Part shown: positions 5,123 through 12,238 of the stretch, in pieces
Layout of the letters: every line of letters begins with the position of its first letter
How positions within the stretch are numbered: position 1 is the stretch's first letter
UHGV virus genome: UHGV-0258057
DNA length: 14,263 nt
Strand: one strand, 5' to 3'
Origin: a virus
Notes under the pieces: generated by a model
The model's input: the letters and a program-made list of their open reading frames with translations, nothing else
What the model was told of the DNA's origin: nothing
The model's database searches: none
Made by a program: the position numbers and the translations under genes

Positions 5123-5641
5123 TCACAGGCCGATATTGCGGCGGTGTTGCTCCAGCCGGTCGACGCCGTTCACCTTCTCAATCATGTTGATGGTGTCGAT
5201 TTCGACCAGCTCCTTACCGTCCATCGTCAGCCGGAAATAGGTGCAGACCACGGAGATTTTCGACTCAGTGTCTTCTCCCTGTTTACCCTCGCCGGTGTCG
5301 ATTTCTTTCTGACGTCCACGCATGACCACTTCGACGGCCACCGTTTCGCCGGTATCGTCACGCTGGTAAGAGCCTGCAAAACGAATCGGCACAGCATCCA
5401 CACCGGTTGCGGCGTAAAGCTCCCAGATAACCGAATCCGGGAAGCCCCCGAGCGACCACTCCATTGACAGCGCATCGTCATCAAGACCGAGGTCTACCGG
5501 TGCGCTGCCGTTCATCCCCGCACCGCGATAGTTTTCGAGCTTACGGGTCAGTTTTGGCAGCGTGACGGACTTTGCAACGCCCTGATAGCTGTAGCCGTTC
5601 AGAAAGACGTTCATTAACTTGAGTTTGCGCGGCATTGCCAT
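5123..5641 (-). CDS. FII: Tail tube protein FII, 172 aa
   Basis: A 172-aa ORF immediately downstream of the sheath gene; size and order match P2 gpFII. Confidence 0.88.
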   Translation of the reverse strand: MAMPRKLKLMNVFLNGYSYQGVAKSVTLPKLTRKLENYRGAGMNGSAPVDLGLDDDALSMEWSLGGFPDSVIWELYAATGVDAVPIRFAGSYQRDDTGETVAVEVVMRGRQKEIDTGEGKQGEDTESKISVVCTYFRLTMDGKELVEIDTINMIEKVNGVDRLEQHRRNIGL

Positions 5642-5653
5642 CGGTCAGGCTCC

Positions 5654-6844
5654 TTAATTGCTGTTAACCGAGGTGACCAGATTTGCCAGATATTTATCGG
5701 TAATACGCTGGCGCAGGGTCAGGTTTTCAAGAGGAGGCACCGGGGTATAGTCGTAGTCGATATACAGTTTTCCGGCCTTAAGGGTTTCCGCATCGTTGGA
5801 TTCTTCGCTGAACCAGCAGGTCGCATCCACGATATAGCCGTTTGTTTTCAGCTCACGGAATTTGGCATTGATGCCGTCAACGATGTCGCGAATCAGCGTT
5901 GCGGTGATGGGCTTGTCCACCGCCCACATGTGCGCCTCAGCCATCGTGTCGGCCAGCACCTGCGCGGTGCGGGTGTAGTTTTCAAAGAGGAACAGCGGAT
6001 CATCAGAGCAGGTACGGTTACCCCAGAAGCGGAAACCGTCGCGGCGAATCAGCGTTGTGACGCCTGACTCGTTAAGCAGGTCAGCATCGGTGCCGGACTC
6101 CTGCAAATCCCAGAATACAGATGCGCTGATGCCGGTAACACCGTTCACCCCGACATTGGACAGCGTTTTATGCCAGCCCTGCTCTTGGTCGATTTTAGCG
6201 CGCAGACCCAGCGCACGGGCGGTGGCATACGCGGTGGCGGTGGTGCTGCTGACCGTATCCCATGCGAGGAAATCCGGCCAGATGACCATCAGCTCACGCT
6301 GGCTGAAATTCTGGCGGTAGGCTTTCACCTCGGAAATGGTTTTGCAGCCCCATGCGCTGATATACCCGAAAGCGCGCAGCTTCTGACAGACTGATGCCAG
6401 TGCAACAGCAACCTCTTTGGTGTCCAGTCCCGGCACGCCGAGAATACGCGGTTTAACACCGGTTACCGACTCCGCCGCCAGCAGGGCTTTCAGTCCGGTG
6501 TACTGACCGTTTTCGTCGGTGGTGCCGATGATATTGGAAACGGTCTGCGCGAGTTTCGTTTCCTCGTCTTCGCCGGTGCCGTCTTCCACACGCACGACAA
6601 CGGTGACCGGTTTTGACTGGTCGGCGATAGCCTGCAACGATGCCGCCAGCGTGCCTTTTTTACCGGCCTTTGCAATCGCGCTCTGCACATTGGTAATCAG
6701 CACCGGTTTATTGAGGGGGAAGATTTCCGCATCCGCATCGCTGGCCGTGCAGACCATGCCGACAATGGCCGTGGATACAGTGGAAATGACACGGGTGCCG
6801 TCGTTAATCTCCAGCACCTGCACGCCGTGATGATAGTCACTCAT
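5654..6844 (-). CDS. FI: Contractile tail sheath protein FI, 396 aa
   Basis: A 396-aa ORF, first gene of the FI-FII-E-T-U-D operon; size and position match P2 gpFI. Confidence 0.9.
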   Translation of the reverse strand: MSDYHHGVQVLEINDGTRVISTVSTAIVGMVCTASDADAEIFPLNKPVLITNVQSAIAKAGKKGTLAASLQAIADQSKPVTVVVRVEDGTGEDEETKLAQTVSNIIGTTDENGQYTGLKALLAAESVTGVKPRILGVPGLDTKEVAVALASVCQKLRAFGYISAWGCKTISEVKAYRQNFSQRELMVIWPDFLAWDTVSSTTATAYATARALGLRAKIDQEQGWHKTLSNVGVNGVTGISASVFWDLQESGTDADLLNESGVTTLIRRDGFRFWGNRTCSDDPLFLFENYTRTAQVLADTMAEAHMWAVDKPITATLIRDIVDGINAKFRELKTNGYIVDATCWFSEESNDAETLKAGKLYIDYDYTPVPPLENLTLRQRITDKYLANLVTSVNSN

Positions 6845-6907
6845 CCGTTTAACTCCGTGGTTAATGGGTGCAACTATTTTCTGTTGGGCAGTGCATGAGA
6901 CGCTATT

Positions 6908-6922
6908 TGACCTGACTGGTCA
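6908..6922 (-). promoter_or_regulatory. Candidate dyad element of the Ogr-dependent late promoter upstream of FI
   Basis: The 15-nt palindrome TGACCtgactGGTCA is centred about 71 nt upstream of the FI start codon, in the position where P2 late promoters carry a dyad-symmetry activator site. I could not find an exact TGT-N12-ACA match. Confidence 0.25.
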
Positions 6923-6938
6923 GTGGATGAAACAACAG

Positions 6939-6971
6939 ATAAAGAAAAGGCGGGCAATCAGATTGCCTGCC
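6939..6971 (-). terminator. Rho-independent terminator closing the cargo operon upstream of the FI promoter
   Basis: A 10-bp stem ggcgggcaat/attgcctgcc (one G-U wobble) with a 3-nt loop at 6949-6971, followed on the minus strand by UUUUCUUUAUCU (plus 6939-6948). It lies about 150 nt downstream of the SIR2-like gene stop. Confidence 0.6.
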
Positions 6972-7123
6972 TTGATTTGTGCTCACTCATTTTCCGACTG
7001 ACAGTTTACATAGCCAAAACGCTATCAAATCTGACAGCCTGCTTTGAGCGAGGAACGGACTAAATGCTCATCTCAGCGGTCAAAGGATATTTTTCTTTGA
7101 CCGTTCTCTTTATAGAGAAAAGA

Positions 7124-8032
7124 TTATCTGTTAGTTTTATTCTGAATATCTTTGATTACATCGAGGTAATACTCTTTTTCCTTCCCTTTGAACACTAACC
7201 CGAAATTATGATTAATTATAACCCCAACACTTTTCAAAAGATCGATTTTTGGTTTGGAAGCAGCGTCATTATAATAATAACCAGGGATGTAATATGTCAC
7301 CTCATATTGCAAGCTTATTTTCTTTGCAATTCTAGTCCTTTCTCTAAATGTAAGTAACCACCAAAGATCAATTTCAACAAAATCCAAATTCAAGCCTAAG
7401 ATATATACATCCTTAGTAAAAAAATCATCGATCCAGCTATTACCAATATCATTTGCTTGCAACCGCTTTGTAAGCGGCTCGTTGAACGATTTATTGGAAT
7501 ACTGACTTCCGGTAGTTGTATACCCCCGCATGCTTTGCAAATAACCACTGTAATGCTCATAGCCAAGAATTATTGAGCTTGGGTTATTCACTGCTCCATG
7601 TATATGCCATATGTTTTTGTTTTTCACCTGATAATGCCTGAAAATATTGTATTTACTTTCTTTTATTACACCTTCATTTTTTAAATCATCAGGCTTGATG
7701 CTGTCGTCTAAACAATATTCAAAAGCTAAATCATAGTTTGTTGTTAAAATATTATTGCATTCTAATCCAATTATTCTTTGATGGATTTCATTTGGCTTTA
7801 TTGTGTTTATCTTTGATGCGATGGAATCTTTTATTTTATTTTCTGAAAATCCATTCGCTTGCTTATTTGAAATATTAAAATAAATCTCTTCATAGGCTAG
7901 TGGAAATGGTTTTTCATGCGTGTCAATTTTTATCCCATATGTTGCCCCTAGGTTATTTAAAACATCAAGCCAAGAATTTCCATTTGTAATATTATTTATG
8001 CCATTTCCAATAAGCAGTGAATAATCGCGCAT
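7124..8032 (-). CDS. Stand-alone SIR2-like (SIR2_2-type, predicted NAD+-hydrolase) protein, 302 aa; candidate defence effector
   Basis: Motifs in sirtuin-fold order: N-terminal glycine-rich LLIGNGINN, then ILTTNYDLAFE (TTNYD signature with the putative catalytic Asn), then WHIHGAVNNPSSIILGYEHY (HG motif with the following strand), then YILGLNLDFVEIDL. Strong RBS AGGGA 5 nt upstream; about 30% GC against about 55% in the flanking phage genes. Confidence 0.6.
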   Translation of the reverse strand: MRDYSLLIGNGINNITNGNSWLDVLNNLGATYGIKIDTHEKPFPLAYEEIYFNISNKQANGFSENKIKDSIASKINTIKPNEIHQRIIGLECNNILTTNYDLAFEYCLDDSIKPDDLKNEGVIKESKYNIFRHYQVKNKNIWHIHGAVNNPSSIILGYEHYSGYLQSMRGYTTTGSQYSNKSFNEPLTKRLQANDIGNSWIDDFFTKDVYILGLNLDFVEIDLWWLLTFRERTRIAKKISLQYEVTYYIPGYYYNDAASKPKIDLLKSVGVIINHNFGLVFKGKEKEYYLDVIKDIQNKTNR

Positions 8033-8262
8033 TTCTATCCCTTATGTTAGATACATTTTTTACACTATACTACTGATATTTATTCTAATACCAGTCATTG
8101 GCATGTTCGACACCGATAAGTTTGATCTTGCCTAGCAACTTATGTTTTCGAATATGCCCCCCCCATGAAAGTCTTAGACAACTATACCTATTAATATCCT
8201 ACAGAGTGCTCTTCGTAGTCAGAAAATGAGAACGAGATAACATCAGTTCATTGGTTTACTCC

Positions 8263-8499
8263 CTACGCAGTTTGTGAGTTAGCACCGTCCGCTTCTGGCA
8301 CGTAGGGGACCAACCAGCTGGTCCTCAGGTCCGATATGAGCGAGAAGCTAAAATTCGCAGTTGTTCCCAAAGTCGATGGAGGAATTTTTAACATTACAGT
8401 GTATTTATCAACGGGAAGCAGGTCACTCTCTATGGTTCTCGCATTATTTGTTAACAAAATAACATATTCTTTTGCTTCATCGATAGTATTGAATATCAT
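8263..8499 (-). CDS. Small hypothetical protein, 78 aa, middle gene of the cargo operon
   Basis: ORF with RBS GTGGGA 5 nt upstream of the ATG. The first ~58 codons are AT-rich like the neighbouring genes; the last ~20 codons read through a GC-rich hairpin element, so the true C-terminus is uncertain. Confidence 0.4.
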   Translation of the reverse strand: MIFNTIDEAKEYVILLTNNARTIESDLLPVDKYTVMLKIPPSTLGTTANFSFSLISDLRTSWLVPYVPEADGANSQTA

Positions 8500-8587
8500 A
8501 AGTTCCCACTTAACATCGATATCTGCGGTAACTGATTAACACAAAGAAATTCATCCAATAGCAGAGAATAACTTTGAGTTTTAGATT

Positions 8588-9430
8588 TTAAAAAACCTTC
8601 AGCCATAATGTTTCGAGCCTTGTGCCAATCACGCCTTTTCCAATGTTATCCAGCCCTCGAACCATTGCGTATAAGCCACCTAATATTTGAATCCCTTCCT
8701 TTACACCTAAAGACGAATAGTCAAAAGTTGGAAAGAGGACGTAATAAGACATAATTACCCCAATACAACACTCGAAAACTCCATAGGAAAGACGGAAATT
8801 TTCTCTGTACCAAAATAGTATGAGTCCTAAAACGGGTAAACCCATCATTGTCCCCCAAACTGTAATGGTAGATACCAGTACTTCCATATTGGAATAGACG
8901 ATGTTTGCGACTAGAGAAGCAAGCCCGCCGAGCACAAAACTGGCTTTTAGGTAACGCTTTTGAGATGAAACAGCTTTTTCTGCTTTCTCTTCTATTTCTT
9001 TATTTAGAAAATCGCCTTTGCTTTCATTTATAAACTCAATGCCAGTCATAGATGTAATATTCCGACTAGCAAGAAAATAAGACAAGGCACGATCATTGGT
9101 CACGACGCAAGGAACTTCTTCTCCTTGCCGTTCTGCGTAAGAAATAGCTATTCGAGCAATATCAAAGTCTGCCCCAGTCAAACGCTGAGCATTTCTATCG
9201 GATTGGAAGATGTCGTTTTTTATTTTTTCAGGCGCTTCAACTATGAGCACACCAGCGGGAATTGACGAGGCCACTAAATCAGTAATATCTGACCATTTGT
9301 TGCTTTTCCCTCTATATGAAAGCTCATGCATCACAGCTCTTGGGATAACTAGCTTCCGATTTCCAGCTCTAGACAATATCTCCGGATGCTGCAATAAAAC
9401 ATTAGTATCTATTATGTATCTACTTGGCAT
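8588..9430 (-). CDS. PIN-domain nuclease fused to a C-terminal ~3-TM membrane domain, 280 aa; candidate defence component
   Basis: The N-terminus YIIDTNVLL...KLVIPRAVMHELS...TNDRAL follows the PIN pattern (first-strand Asp, then Glu, then the C-terminal TND motif), resembling the YlaK/PhoH-like PIN. The C-terminal ~110 aa has three hydrophobic stretches (FVLGGLASLVANIVY..VLVSTITVWGTMMGLPVLGLILFWY; GVFECCIGVIMSYYVLFPTF; IQILGGLYAMVRGL). RBS AGGGA upstream. Confidence 0.55.
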   Translation of the reverse strand: MPSRYIIDTNVLLQHPEILSRAGNRKLVIPRAVMHELSYRGKSNKWSDITDLVASSIPAGVLIVEAPEKIKNDIFQSDRNAQRLTGADFDIARIAISYAERQGEEVPCVVTNDRALSYFLASRNITSMTGIEFINESKGDFLNKEIEEKAEKAVSSQKRYLKASFVLGGLASLVANIVYSNMEVLVSTITVWGTMMGLPVLGLILFWYRENFRLSYGVFECCIGVIMSYYVLFPTFDYSSLGVKEGIQILGGLYAMVRGLDNIGKGVIGTRLETLWLKVF

Positions 9431-9587
9431 AAGCTATCCCTGATACCTTAATTTATCAAATAAAACGGTATGTAAACATATAAAACATAACTTCACAACT
9501 CACTTATCACTGCAAGTTTCCCAACCAGGCAAGCCATGTGCTTAGATATCTGACCTAACGTTTCTAAATTGATGAATGTCCGCTATT

Positions 9588-9628
9588 GGCACAGAGCGGA
9601 CTGTCAGATTAGGCTTTACTCTGTGCCA
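9588..9628. repeat. 10-bp perfect inverted repeat with 21-nt loop, between the G stop and the cargo operon start
   Basis: tggcacagag (9588-9597) pairs with ctctgtgcca (9619-9628). There is no U-run on either side, so it is not a canonical intrinsic terminator; it may be a protein-binding site or the boundary of the cargo insertion. Confidence 0.4.
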
Positions 9629-9661
9629 TAGATATGTAAGCTCCCACCAGAGCTCATACAC

Positions 9662-10189
9662 TTATTGCGGCATTTCCGGCCATTCAGGATTTGCAGTATC
9701 CACACGACTGACAAGAACGCTGTAGCGTTCCCATGCCTCCAGTCGACTGCGCTCCTCATCTGTTGCCATATTCAGCCTGACAGCGCGCTCCAGCGGCAAA
9801 ATCACGGATTCGGCTTCGGAAAGCAAAGTTGCCTTTTGTGATTCTGCCAGTTGCTGCTGTTCGTCTGCCGTATAAATCCGCTTAATCACTGCACCATCCT
9901 TAAACATCCATTTACCTGAGTCATCAGCACGCCGGTTGGCAGTAATATCAGGAACCTCAACGACGCTAAAACCTTCAGGATTAAGCGTTGAAGCATCTCT
10001 GGTGATGGCGACAATAATATTATTTTCATCATAAACAATCTTTATTGTCTCTGGCTGAAAATTACTTACTTCCTCATACCAGTTTTTTCCGTCTTCGGAC
10101 CATAACCAGATAACATCAAAATTCTTTGTTAGCTGATATTGCTCTTTTGTTTTTGGATTACCTGACTTAATGTTCTTTAAATGCTGCAT
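9662..10189 (-). CDS. G: Tail fibre assembly protein G (Tfa chaperone), 175 aa
   Basis: A 175-aa ORF immediately downstream of tail fibre gene H; size and position match P2 gpG. Confidence 0.8.
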
Positions 10190-10192
10190 AAC

Positions 10193-12238
10193 TTATACCT
10201 GCGCAACGTTATACCATGTGCCATTGATGTATTTTTGTATTGGTCTGAATACTGCCGGATCATCGCCATCAACTTCACCGACAATACCAAGCCCCGTAAT
10301 TGCATGGCCTGATTTTTCATACATCACGCCTTTCTGCATGGTCTGCACAACACGTGTGCCAAGTCTGATATCTCTCACATAGCGGGAATCAAAGTTACCG
10401 TAATCCGAGGGATTAACACGCCCCGTAATATTTATGGTCTTATTACTTTGAATGCTTCCGGAGACAAAGCGCATAACATGGACGTTATTAGCATAAACAT
10501 CTAGATTACCATCGCCATTTTGTTTAAATCCGGTGTCGCTATCACCAAGAACAATAGAGTTCCCACCCAACGCGTTATTCGTGCCAAGTGCCAGCCCGCC
10601 ATCAATCCTGGCACCATTACCAACAGACACAACTCCTGTTCTTAAGTTGATACCGAATGGCCTTAATGGCCCGATATCCCCATTTTCACCCTCATTTTCT
10701 CGTGTAGGGATGATATACAGGTTTTCTTCAGAACGGCGAAAAATAGCACCAAAAGATGAATTAAATATCCTCAGTGCATTGACTGTAGATATTTTTACTT
10801 CACTGCTGAAAAGGGCTTTAACAAGAACATACAGAGCATCCCATTTAAGATGCATCAGGTCTTTTGTTGTGGTGCTCTGGCGACTTCTCCATTTGAAATA
10901 TTCATTGCCGTTGTCGCCTGTTTCAAACCACATATATGAATCAGTATCGCTGTCGGCATCATTTTTAAATCCAATCTTTGCCCAGTCAGTATTTCGAATC
11001 CAGGCAAGGATTGAGTCGTTTTCAAATGTAAGCCCACCGGACAAGGTATCGCCATTCTTTTGCACCGCGTTCCTGGCTCGGTTTTCCGTTTCCTGTAAAC
11101 CGAGATATTCGATAACGGCGGCAACGGTCGATTTCGCAAGAATATCTCGCCCGACTTTTGTCAGGATTGCCAGGCTGGCAACATCATTCCCCGTAAAATA
11201 CGGAAACCTGTCTGCCGCAGTAACAAGCCCCGCCAGCGCCGTCAAAGTGGCATCTTTCGGTTGCTTACCCGCAAGCGCATTAGTCATGGTGATAGCAAAA
11301 TTCGGGTCATTGCCCAGCGCCGCTGCCAGCTCGTTCAGCGTATTCAGTGCGTCAGGCGACGAGTCTACAAGGGCGGCAATCGCGGCCATAACGAAAGCCG
11401 TGTTTGCGATCTGAGTATTATTCGTTCCCTGTCGCGCAGTTGGCGTCGTTGGCGTTCCGGTCAGTGCAGGGCTGTTTAATGGCGCTTTTTGGTTCGTTTC
11501 ATCCATTACCGTCTTAACAGCTTTTGGTGTTGCGGCGAGCGTTTCAGACATGCTGTTGGTCGCACTACTTAGCTGGACAAGACCTTTTCGCGCTGTGGTA
11601 GCGTCCTGTGCGGTATATTTCCCGTTAGCAAGGTCATATGCGGCCTTAACCGCTTTCGGCGTTGCGGCCAGTGTTTCAGATATGCTGTTGGTCGCACTGC
11701 TTAACTGAGTAAAACCTTTTGCGGTCAGCGAGGCGTCAGGGTGACGTCGTGACTGTTCATGTTCTGCAATTTTGTCATCAACGTAATCCTGCGTTGCCAT
11801 CACCGTTGTGGTGTCAATGGTCAGCGCCACTGAGGCCACACTGCTGACGATGATGACCATGCGGCAGGTCTGCGAACGCCCTGAGCCTTCGGCAAGGGCA
11901 GGCTTATAACTTTCGGCCATGTTCGCCACGGCAATTAACGTTCCCGCATCATCGTACAGGCCAAGCTCACGCATCCAGAAACCGCCCACCTCCGGCGGAA
12001 TAACCAGCTCTGCGATAATATAATTACTGTTTCGTTTGTCCTGGCTGATTTTGTTCAGCGCATGTCGCCAGACTTCGTGGATAAGCCCGGTCTGTCCGGC
12101 ATCCGGGACAGGCAATTTACCACCGCCATCCCCGACGGCCATCGTGGTAATGTTGACCTTCCGCCCTCCCGGCGCGGTTGCCGCTGCCAGCTTTGCTGCA
12201 CCGGCAGTGGTGATAACGGTTCTGAATTTTGTGCTCAT
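10193..12238 (-). CDS. H: Tail fibre protein H, 681 aa
   Basis: Large ORF between I and G; contains a duplicated QLSSATNS(I/M)SETLAATPKAVK motif characteristic of P2 H/Stf-type fibres and a compositionally distinct C-terminal domain. Confidence 0.85.
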   Translation of the reverse strand: MSTKFRTVITTAGAAKLAAATAPGGRKVNITTMAVGDGGGKLPVPDAGQTGLIHEVWRHALNKISQDKRNSNYIIAELVIPPEVGGFWMRELGLYDDAGTLIAVANMAESYKPALAEGSGRSQTCRMVIIVSSVASVALTIDTTTVMATQDYVDDKIAEHEQSRRHPDASLTAKGFTQLSSATNSISETLAATPKAVKAAYDLANGKYTAQDATTARKGLVQLSSATNSMSETLAATPKAVKTVMDETNQKAPLNSPALTGTPTTPTARQGTNNTQIANTAFVMAAIAALVDSSPDALNTLNELAAALGNDPNFAITMTNALAGKQPKDATLTALAGLVTAADRFPYFTGNDVASLAILTKVGRDILAKSTVAAVIEYLGLQETENRARNAVQKNGDTLSGGLTFENDSILAWIRNTDWAKIGFKNDADSDTDSYMWFETGDNGNEYFKWRSRQSTTTKDLMHLKWDALYVLVKALFSSEVKISTVNALRIFNSSFGAIFRRSEENLYIIPTRENEGENGDIGPLRPFGINLRTGVVSVGNGARIDGGLALGTNNALGGNSIVLGDSDTGFKQNGDGNLDVYANNVHVMRFVSGSIQSNKTINITGRVNPSDYGNFDSRYVRDIRLGTRVVQTMQKGVMYEKSGHAITGLGIVGEVDGDDPAVFRPIQKYINGTWYNVAQV

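Follow-up and report, generated by a model that had tools for sequence, protein, structure and literature searches.

Among the described systems most comparable to the locus reported here, AbiH of Lactococcus lactis is a single sirtuin-like protein encoded on mobile elements, with a mechanism that is still unknown (PMC13064643), the DSR proteins are of about 1,000 amino acids (aa) and have a large C-terminal sensor that binds the phage tail tube protein (PMC11087589), and KomC of the Kongming system acts together with KomA, KomB and a deoxyinosine triphosphate (dITP) signal (bioRxiv 10.1101/2024.12.20.629578). Defence genes have been reported to be enriched near SIR2 proteins of the immune clade (bioRxiv 10.1101/2024.09.18.613514). 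The Z region of phage P2, in turn, is a known variable locus that hosts anti-phage genes (PMC9122126), and defence cargo has been reported to be kept in defective P2 elements (PMC13586616). Here we analyse a gene encoding a SIR2-only protein in a stretch of 14,263 nucleotides (nt) of the virus genome UHGV-0258057, hereafter the window. The gene is a moron, lodged between the tail genes G and FI in the Z/fun cargo slot of a P2-like prophage, and with moderate confidence we favour the view that it constitutes a self-contained single-gene anti-phage module of the 'SIRim' branch, AbiH-like in architecture.

An immune-type SIR2 protein on a one-gene mobile unit

The first-pass annotation of the window described a minimal stand-alone SIR2-like protein with no sensor domain, and this description agrees with our data, since the whole protein forms one compact domain with no fused sensor and matches Pfam PF13289 (SIR2_2) with 40.9 bits against a gathering cut-off of 24.5. 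The predicted structure is a high-confidence sirtuin fold of Rossmann type, closer to immune enzymes that hydrolyse nicotinamide adenine dinucleotide (NAD+), or NADases, than to deacylase sirtuins, with KomC and ThsA as its nearest matches. The glycine-rich loop, TTNYD and HG motifs recognised in the initial reading are retained not only in the window but throughout the family: G9, N10, N13, T97, N99, Y100, W142, H143, H145 and G146 are invariant in 207 members, and N99 and H145 align with N112 and H152 of ThsA. What had been taken for a short C-terminal extension is instead part of the single domain. Neither Pfam nor the structure revealed a ligand-binding domain such as SLOG, Macro or SAVED. 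No cysteine is conserved among the 207 members, so that a zinc module is absent and a zinc-dependent deacylase was ruled out. The protein belongs to the SIR2_2 or immune 'SIRim' branch of the SIR2 superfamily and, on its sequence and modelled structure, is almost certainly an immune-type SIR2 with a competent active site.

A search for homologues gave 1,443 proteins at E <= 0.001. Among the 120 matches listed, almost all measure 290-305 aa and nearly all carry PF13289, as the sole domain. The 207 members collected range from 271 to 379 aa with a median of 296, all but two of them (205) falling between 285 and 335 aa, and their hosts comprise Enterobacterales, Vibrionales, Aeromonas, many Bacteroidota and Chloroflexota. 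Because the family is uniformly short over such a broad range of taxa, the minimal SIR2-only architecture is both conserved and widespread. Its carriers are equally varied and include P2 and lambdoid prophages, chromosomal islets, integrative and conjugative elements (ICEs), integron cassettes and Bacteroidota chromosomes. One relative, in Vibrio parahaemolyticus, has no other gene with it between two attC-like repeats of a 16-copy integron array, one in Salmonella diarizonae is a lone insert within an ICE transfer operon, and one in Dickeya is located after a Phd/Fic pair.

Comparison of the DNA itself shows that the SIR2 gene moves as a self-contained one-gene unit, and that the cargo of the window consists of two independently mobile one-gene units stacked together, the second one encoding a PIN domain followed by a transmembrane (TM) region (PIN-TM). 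A single block of 1.27 kb, composed of a segment that we call X, a leader, the coding sequence (CDS) and an 83-nt tail (7041-8310), recurs with 97.4% identity over 1270 nt in a chromosomal islet of Klebsiella variicola (L104) and with 92.1% identity in a lambdoid phage contig (L108), after the tail-tip gene, in both cases without PIN-TM. The leader, which presumably holds the gene's own promoter, is kept in the Klebsiella, Rahnella, Pantoea, Yersinia and Dickeya loci regardless of the DNA lying upstream; the Rahnella and Pantoea loci lose their homology to the window at about 8134-8138. A hairpin just after the stop codon belongs to the block conserved with the Rahnella, Pantoea and Klebsiella loci (L010, L011 and L104) and is a possible transcript end. 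In every copy read the SIR2 open reading frame (ORF) is intact. A further arrangement occurs in a lambdoid prophage of Proteus mirabilis (L002-L005 and L012; 5001-7078), where a SIR2 gene 71% identical occupies the moron site after tail-tip protein J and is followed, 39 nt on, by a PD-T7-5 homologue (436 bits). The related contig L108 (5001-5909) carries its 92% identical SIR2 unit at the same site after J without PD-T7-5, and the Proteus pair is another case of stacked one-gene defences.

We inspected 88 loci encoding relatives of the protein, with 5-6 kb of flank where the contig allowed, and set apart an 89th (L001), which is the copy of the window's own island in E. coli ZH177. A homologue of PIN-TM, or of the 78-codon frame orf78 that lies between the two cargo genes, was present in none of the 88, and clustering of their neighbours yielded no family common beyond a single genus. 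Conversely, the PIN-TM loci L098-L101 and L111 contain no SIR2 gene, so a two-gene system of PIN-TM and SIR2 does not emerge from co-occurrence across relatives. It is this co-occurrence pattern, together with the module boundaries and the single-gene contexts, that leads us to regard the SIR2 gene as not paired with its neighbours, and its independence from both PIN-TM and orf78 is, on these comparisons, very probable. The first-pass annotation had proposed an NADase effector activated in trans by the neighbouring small protein or by the PIN-TM protein. Its effector half stands, given the affiliation to the immune clade and the intact catalytic Asn and His, whereas its trans-activation half finds no support for PIN-TM, each unit recurring without the other, nor for the small protein (orf78), an uncalled orphan spanning the junction of the two units.

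When 141 neighbours drawn from 44 non-redundant loci were scanned with PADLOC, many different defence families came up, none of them in more than two proteins. Immediate neighbours of the relatives include PD-T7-5 (the Proteus prophage), Avs4, a type I restriction enzyme, a PLD-SNF2 helicase, PDC-M62 and DUF4297-HerA, to which the PADLOC scan of the 141 neighbours adds MADS genes, AbiEii, DpdF and restriction-modification genes of types II and IIG. Such company agrees with the published enrichment of defence genes near SIR2 proteins of the immune clade, and we consider an anti-phage role likely. In Rahnella, Pantoea and Yersinia (L010 2427-6001, L011 1218-4758 and L105 1257-5001) the DUF4297 and HerA genes lie between segment X and the SIR2 leader, which points either to a clean 3.3-kb insertion in these loci or to a deletion in the E. 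coli/Klebsiella lineage. We read this arrangement as further stacking, because DUF4297-HerA is a complete known system (PADLOC 540 and 927 bits) and X plus SIR2 exists without it in Klebsiella and in the lambdoid phage.

Mode of action and alternative explanations

In the mechanism that we propose, the gene would be expressed, probably from its own leader, in the lysogen, and when a competing phage infects, the SIR2-only protein would be switched on directly, with no dedicated partner. The trigger might be a phage product or an infection-induced metabolite acting on the SIR2 domain itself, and activation would probably proceed through higher-order assembly, by analogy with ThsA, KomC, FAM118B and Avs5. 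An assembly-gated switch is our preferred guess because these closest solved relatives have all been deposited as helical or filament assemblies. Once activated, the enzyme would hydrolyse NAD+ and the infection would be aborted. NAD+ depletion is a reasonably probable mechanism, and direct sensing through assembly may be put forward as a tentative idea. In its boldest form, which we offer as a conjecture rather than an expectation, the bare SIR2 domain of about 300 aa would be a complete immune system, sensor and effector in one, the cue being read by its own helical sub-domain or oligomer interface and leading to assembly-dependent NAD+ depletion. Candidate cue-reading stretches outside the NAD site are, for example, the invariant KPFPxxYEE and LGYEHYxGxLQxMRxY. 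If true, this would be the smallest self-sufficient NADase defence and a tractable model for the AbiH mechanism. If the gene protects alone, a SIR2 NADase domain can do without both a fused sensor and a signalling partner, which would sharpen the question of how such a domain is silenced and triggered, open for AbiH since 1996 and relevant to the filament-forming human FAM118 sirtuins. A length of 302 aa, a high-confidence prediction and more than 1,000 homologues would make the protein a convenient study system.

Several observations weigh against a self-contained defence module. How a domain lacking a sensor stays off and then turns on lacks an explanation, and no experimental test of the SIR2-only family was found in literature searches on P2 hotspots, AbiH and SIR2, single-gene SIR2, DefensePredictor, integron cassettes and the classification of Sir2-HerA. 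PADLOC has no specific model for the protein, which gives only weak matches to ThsA, LmuA, PDC-S25 and generic SIR2 profiles. A consensus scan for promoters and terminators produced sites not above shuffled controls, and no promoter is claimed. The counts of defence neighbours are given without a background control. In Rahnella, Pantoea and Yersinia the SIR2 gene, 85-89% identical, lies 392 nt downstream of DUF4297-HerA, so that it may depend on a partner in some contexts. Finally, in Chitinophaga the SIR2 homologue stands directly downstream of an AlkB-like 2-oxoglutarate-Fe(II) oxygenase gene, on the same strand, at 10 of 10 loci (L059, L063, L065, L067, L070, L073, L075, L082, L086 and L089), the two genes of L059 being about 16 nt apart, and in Sphingobacterium it follows a bacteriophytochrome histidine kinase gene (L051, L060, L062, L066, L068, L071, L084 and L085). 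This genus-stable synteny with genes of housekeeping type is atypical of defence islands and unlike the mobile contexts seen in Proteobacteria.

Among the alternatives, the one that best survives is that the sirtuin fold performs another job, as a protein or nucleic-acid ADP-ribosyltransferase, as a deacylase, or in a function outside defence, for example in maintaining the prophage or regulating metabolism. We judge this explanation unlikely.

We find it rather improbable that the gene is an effector-only cassette, incomplete by itself and relying on a factor encoded elsewhere, for instance the signal or complex of DUF4297-HerA or a conserved host factor. The position of the SIR2 gene behind DUF4297-HerA would suit such a dependence, as would the match of segment X to the DNA upstream of that pair, which could have been deleted in the window, and an effector that acts alone in response to a conserved signal of the host has been reported (bioRxiv 10.1101/2025.06.19.660554). 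However, DUF4297-HerA already forms a complete two-gene system and was seen in just three of the contexts examined, X plus SIR2 occurs without HerA, and the SIR2-only protein has no recognisable domain of the SLOG, Macro or SAVED type with which to bind a ligand. The single-gene integron and ICE contexts, spread across distant phyla, also make a specific partner at an unlinked site less plausible.

A two- or three-gene operon, in which the product of PIN-TM, of orf78 or of both senses infection and activates the SIR2 effector in trans, receives very little credence from us. The two genes are adjacent, co-oriented and always together where the exact SIR2 allele occurs, every copy read belonging to one and the same P2 island. 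Partner proteins are indeed required by known minimal SIR2 NADases, KomC among them (bioRxiv 10.1101/2024.12.20.629578). As far as sequence analysis goes, the two cargo genes may still have a local functional synergy. Against a joint operon, SIR2 and PIN-TM each recur without the other at 92-98% DNA identity, a gap of 555 nt separates the two genes, the SIR2 gene brings its own conserved leader, the GC contents (fractions of guanine plus cytosine) of the two cargo genes differ (0.31 vs 0.39), and the PIN-TM unit abuts a P2-type inverted repeat in Pectobacterium, so that the SIR2 unit resembles a later insertion. The absence of PIN-TM and orf78 homologues from the 88 other loci and the orphan status of orf78 across the unit junction complete the case against a joint system.

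That the gene is a decaying, non-functional remnant travelling as a passive passenger of the hotspot is hardly credible, for although the prophage around the cargo is degraded in ZH177, it is the phage genes that are broken there and the cargo that is intact, the ORF is uninterrupted in every copy read, and the length of the family is tightly conserved with its catalytic and many other residues invariant.

The P2-like prophage, its cargo slot and the neighbouring genes

The large ORFs of the window all lie on the minus strand and are tail genes of P2 type (Table 1). Between G and FI the GC content drops from about 0.55 to 0.31-0.39, and the homology to the P2 backbone stops at about 7060. When the interval 6845-9661 was compared by BLAST with 5,426 complete E. 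coli genomes, the flanks were found in 1,019 of them and the whole insert in a single one, strain ZH177, where the NCBI annotation lists a 'SIR2 family protein' and a 'PIN domain-containing protein' with no gene called between them. The same flanks, in phage records, lie on either side of the P2 'Z-region', whose occupants are unrelated genes across P2-like phages and whose left and right inverted repeats are annotated (AJ512683). The cargo of the window lies between gpG and gpFI, bounded by these Z-region inverted repeats, and it therefore shares with the described Z/fun hotspot cargo (Nilsson et al. 2004; Rousset et al. 2022, PMC9122126) both the slot and the imperfect repeats. Most of the listed examples consist of one gene, whereas here two units are stacked, in a combination that is rare (1/5,426). 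The locus shows P2 hotspots building defence arsenals, with two one-gene units of separate history in one cassette bounded by inverted repeats. In ZH177 (L001, 6607-8000) the prophage has decayed, with the sheath-to-D region deleted and the terminase and baseplate V genes truncated, and both SIR2 and PIN-TM remain intact, in line with the report that defective P2 elements keep their defence cargo.

Table 1. Coordinates of the features of the window
Feature	Position	Strand	Remarks
Tube FII	5123-5641	-	P2-type; then tape-measure, U, D
Tail sheath, gpFI-type	5654-6844	-	Pfam Phage_sheath_1 and Phage_sheath_1C; gpFI in the P2 record; downstream border of the slot
Imperfect inverted repeat, FI-side arm	7028-7060	.	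33 nt, 76% complementary to 9578-9610
SIR2 mobile unit	7041-8310	-	Segment X (~8139-8310), leader, CDS and 83-nt tail; one block of 1.27 kb
13-bp hairpin	7075-7105	- (listed on +)	Just after the SIR2 stop codon, within the mobile unit
SIR2-only protein, 302 aa	7124-8032	-	GNGINN 9-14, TTNYD 97-101, WHIHG 142-146
Leader	8033-8138	-	~106 nt, with ribosome-binding site; presumed own promoter
orf78, 78 codons	8263-8499	-	Small protein of the first-pass annotation
PIN-TM mobile unit	8337-9597	-	CDS with 167 nt upstream and 251 nt downstream; homology with L098 and L111
PIN-TM, 280 aa	8588-9430	-	PIN_4 domain (Pfam, 44.1 bits) and C-terminal transmembrane region
Imperfect inverted repeat, G-side arm	9578-9610	.	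Pairs with 7028-7060; both arms bound the cargo slot
Tail fibre assembly protein, gpG-type	9662-10189	-	Pfam Caudo_TAP 123.6 bits and annotation of the identical locus; upstream border of the slot
Tail fibre H	10193-12238	-	P2-type tail gene

Two further observations concern the borders of the slot. Between the cargo and the start of FI, within conserved P2 backbone, a terminator-like hairpin followed by a T-run, GGCAATCTGATTGCC CGCCTTTTCT, is located at 6953-6967 on the minus strand, and it would stop cargo transcripts ahead of the late FI operon. On the other side, the tail fibre H gene has a GC content of 0.39-0.42 distally (10193-11000, corresponding to the C-terminal half) and of about 0.54 in its proximal half, with 0.48 around G (9662-10189), which suggests a horizontally exchanged module of receptor-binding and chaperone functions adjoining the cargo slot.

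The PIN-TM protein contains three to four hydrophobic segments at 160-236, and its residues D8 and D113 and the C-terminal motif GLYxMVRGLDN are conserved. It has 109 homologues, nearly all of about 280 aa, in Proteobacteria, Chlorobi and Campylobacterota, and no match in PADLOC. Its unit is 95.6% identical over 8337-9597 to a stretch of an integrative (mobilisable) element of Pectobacterium (L098) and 97.6% identical over 8287-9597 to a phage contig (L111), at a moron site after a Gin-type invertase, both of them without SIR2; more distant homologues stand alone in the trpA-ydjM gap of Aeromonas. In the Pectobacterium element, about 65 nt directly after the PIN-TM unit (L098 6081-6144) are homologous to the FI-side P2 inverted repeat (window 6996-7059), and the other end of the unit extends into the G-side repeat. 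Since the PIN-TM unit there abuts a P2-type repeat, the cargo of the window appears to have begun as a 'PIN-TM only' cassette that received the 1.27-kb SIR2 unit later, and a Z-region cassette bounded by inverted repeats seems, from these alignments, to be exchangeable between P2-like phages and a mobile element that is not a phage. We regard PIN-TM, on the distribution of its copies, as an independent co-cargo gene and not as a partner of SIR2; it looks like an uncharacterised single-gene module and is a candidate membrane-anchored PIN RNase gene of defence or exclusion. An 8-nt string, AGGGATAG, forms the ribosome-binding context just upstream of the ATG in both cargo genes (8035-8042 and 9434-9441, minus strand); its presence in two units of separate histories is probably a coincidence.

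The frame orf78 crosses the junction of the two units, with its start in the tail of PIN-TM and its end within segment X. It has no family match in Pfam, PADLOC, NCBIfam or PHROGs, it is uncalled in all public annotations seen, and a comparison with 1.84 billion representative proteins found as its only real homologue a 97% identical copy of itself. In the Pectobacterium copy (L098) the first codon is Ile instead of ATG and the frame stops at 60 codons, whereas the ratio of synonymous to non-synonymous changes between the two copies does not discriminate, being similar, at this short distance, to that of the bona fide PIN-TM gene. From its other features orf78 is most likely not a gene and, if anything, belongs to the PIN-TM unit. 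For none of the three cargo ORFs did NCBIfam give a meaningful match, and PHROGs returned for them just a weak match to a family of unknown function. Foldseek against viral structures (BFVD) gave zero matches at E <= 0.001.

Comparison with known systems

Membership of the SIR2-only protein in the ThsA, KomC, DSR and Nezha systems was considered and rejected, one defining feature being absent in each. In type I Thoeris, the C-terminal SLOG domain of ThsA binds glycocyclic ADP-ribose (gcADPR) made by ThsB, whereas the protein of the window has no SLOG or Macro domain and no adjacent TIR gene; its PADLOC match to ThsA covers just the SIR2 part, at profile positions 23-178 of 478. KomC (PDB 8zsf and 9v0g) is structurally among the nearest proteins, with a sequence identity of just 18%, but the cargo comprises only PIN-TM and SIR2, no neighbour is conserved in the 88 other loci, and no deaminase or HAM1-like gene was found beside the SIR2-only gene or its relatives in the loci examined. 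DSR1 and DSR2 are also single-gene SIR2 NADase defences, whose SIR2 domain superposes on the predicted structure (Foldseek probability 1.00), yet the SIR2-only protein ends where the SIR2 domain of DSR ends. An adjacent and co-inherited HerA gene, as in SIR2-HerA (Nezha), is lacking. A published paper on a Vibrio 'SIR2-like' protein concerns Nezha. Outside bacteria, human FAM118B is a noncanonical filament-forming sirtuin about 19% identical, eukaryotic and set in another cellular context (PMC12700824).

Closest in architecture is AbiH, likewise a single gene encoding a single sirtuin-like domain of some 300-350 aa, which has neither a fused sensor nor an obligatory partner. The AbiH profile PF14253 matches residues 66-226 below threshold (27.1 bits against a cut-off of 30.9) and the PADLOC scan gave no AbiH match at E <= 0.1, so that AbiH is treated here as a separate family. 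Because the mechanism of AbiH is unknown, the analogy is silent on the trigger. The SIR2-only proteins are a new family within a known kind, that of the single-gene SIR2 defences.
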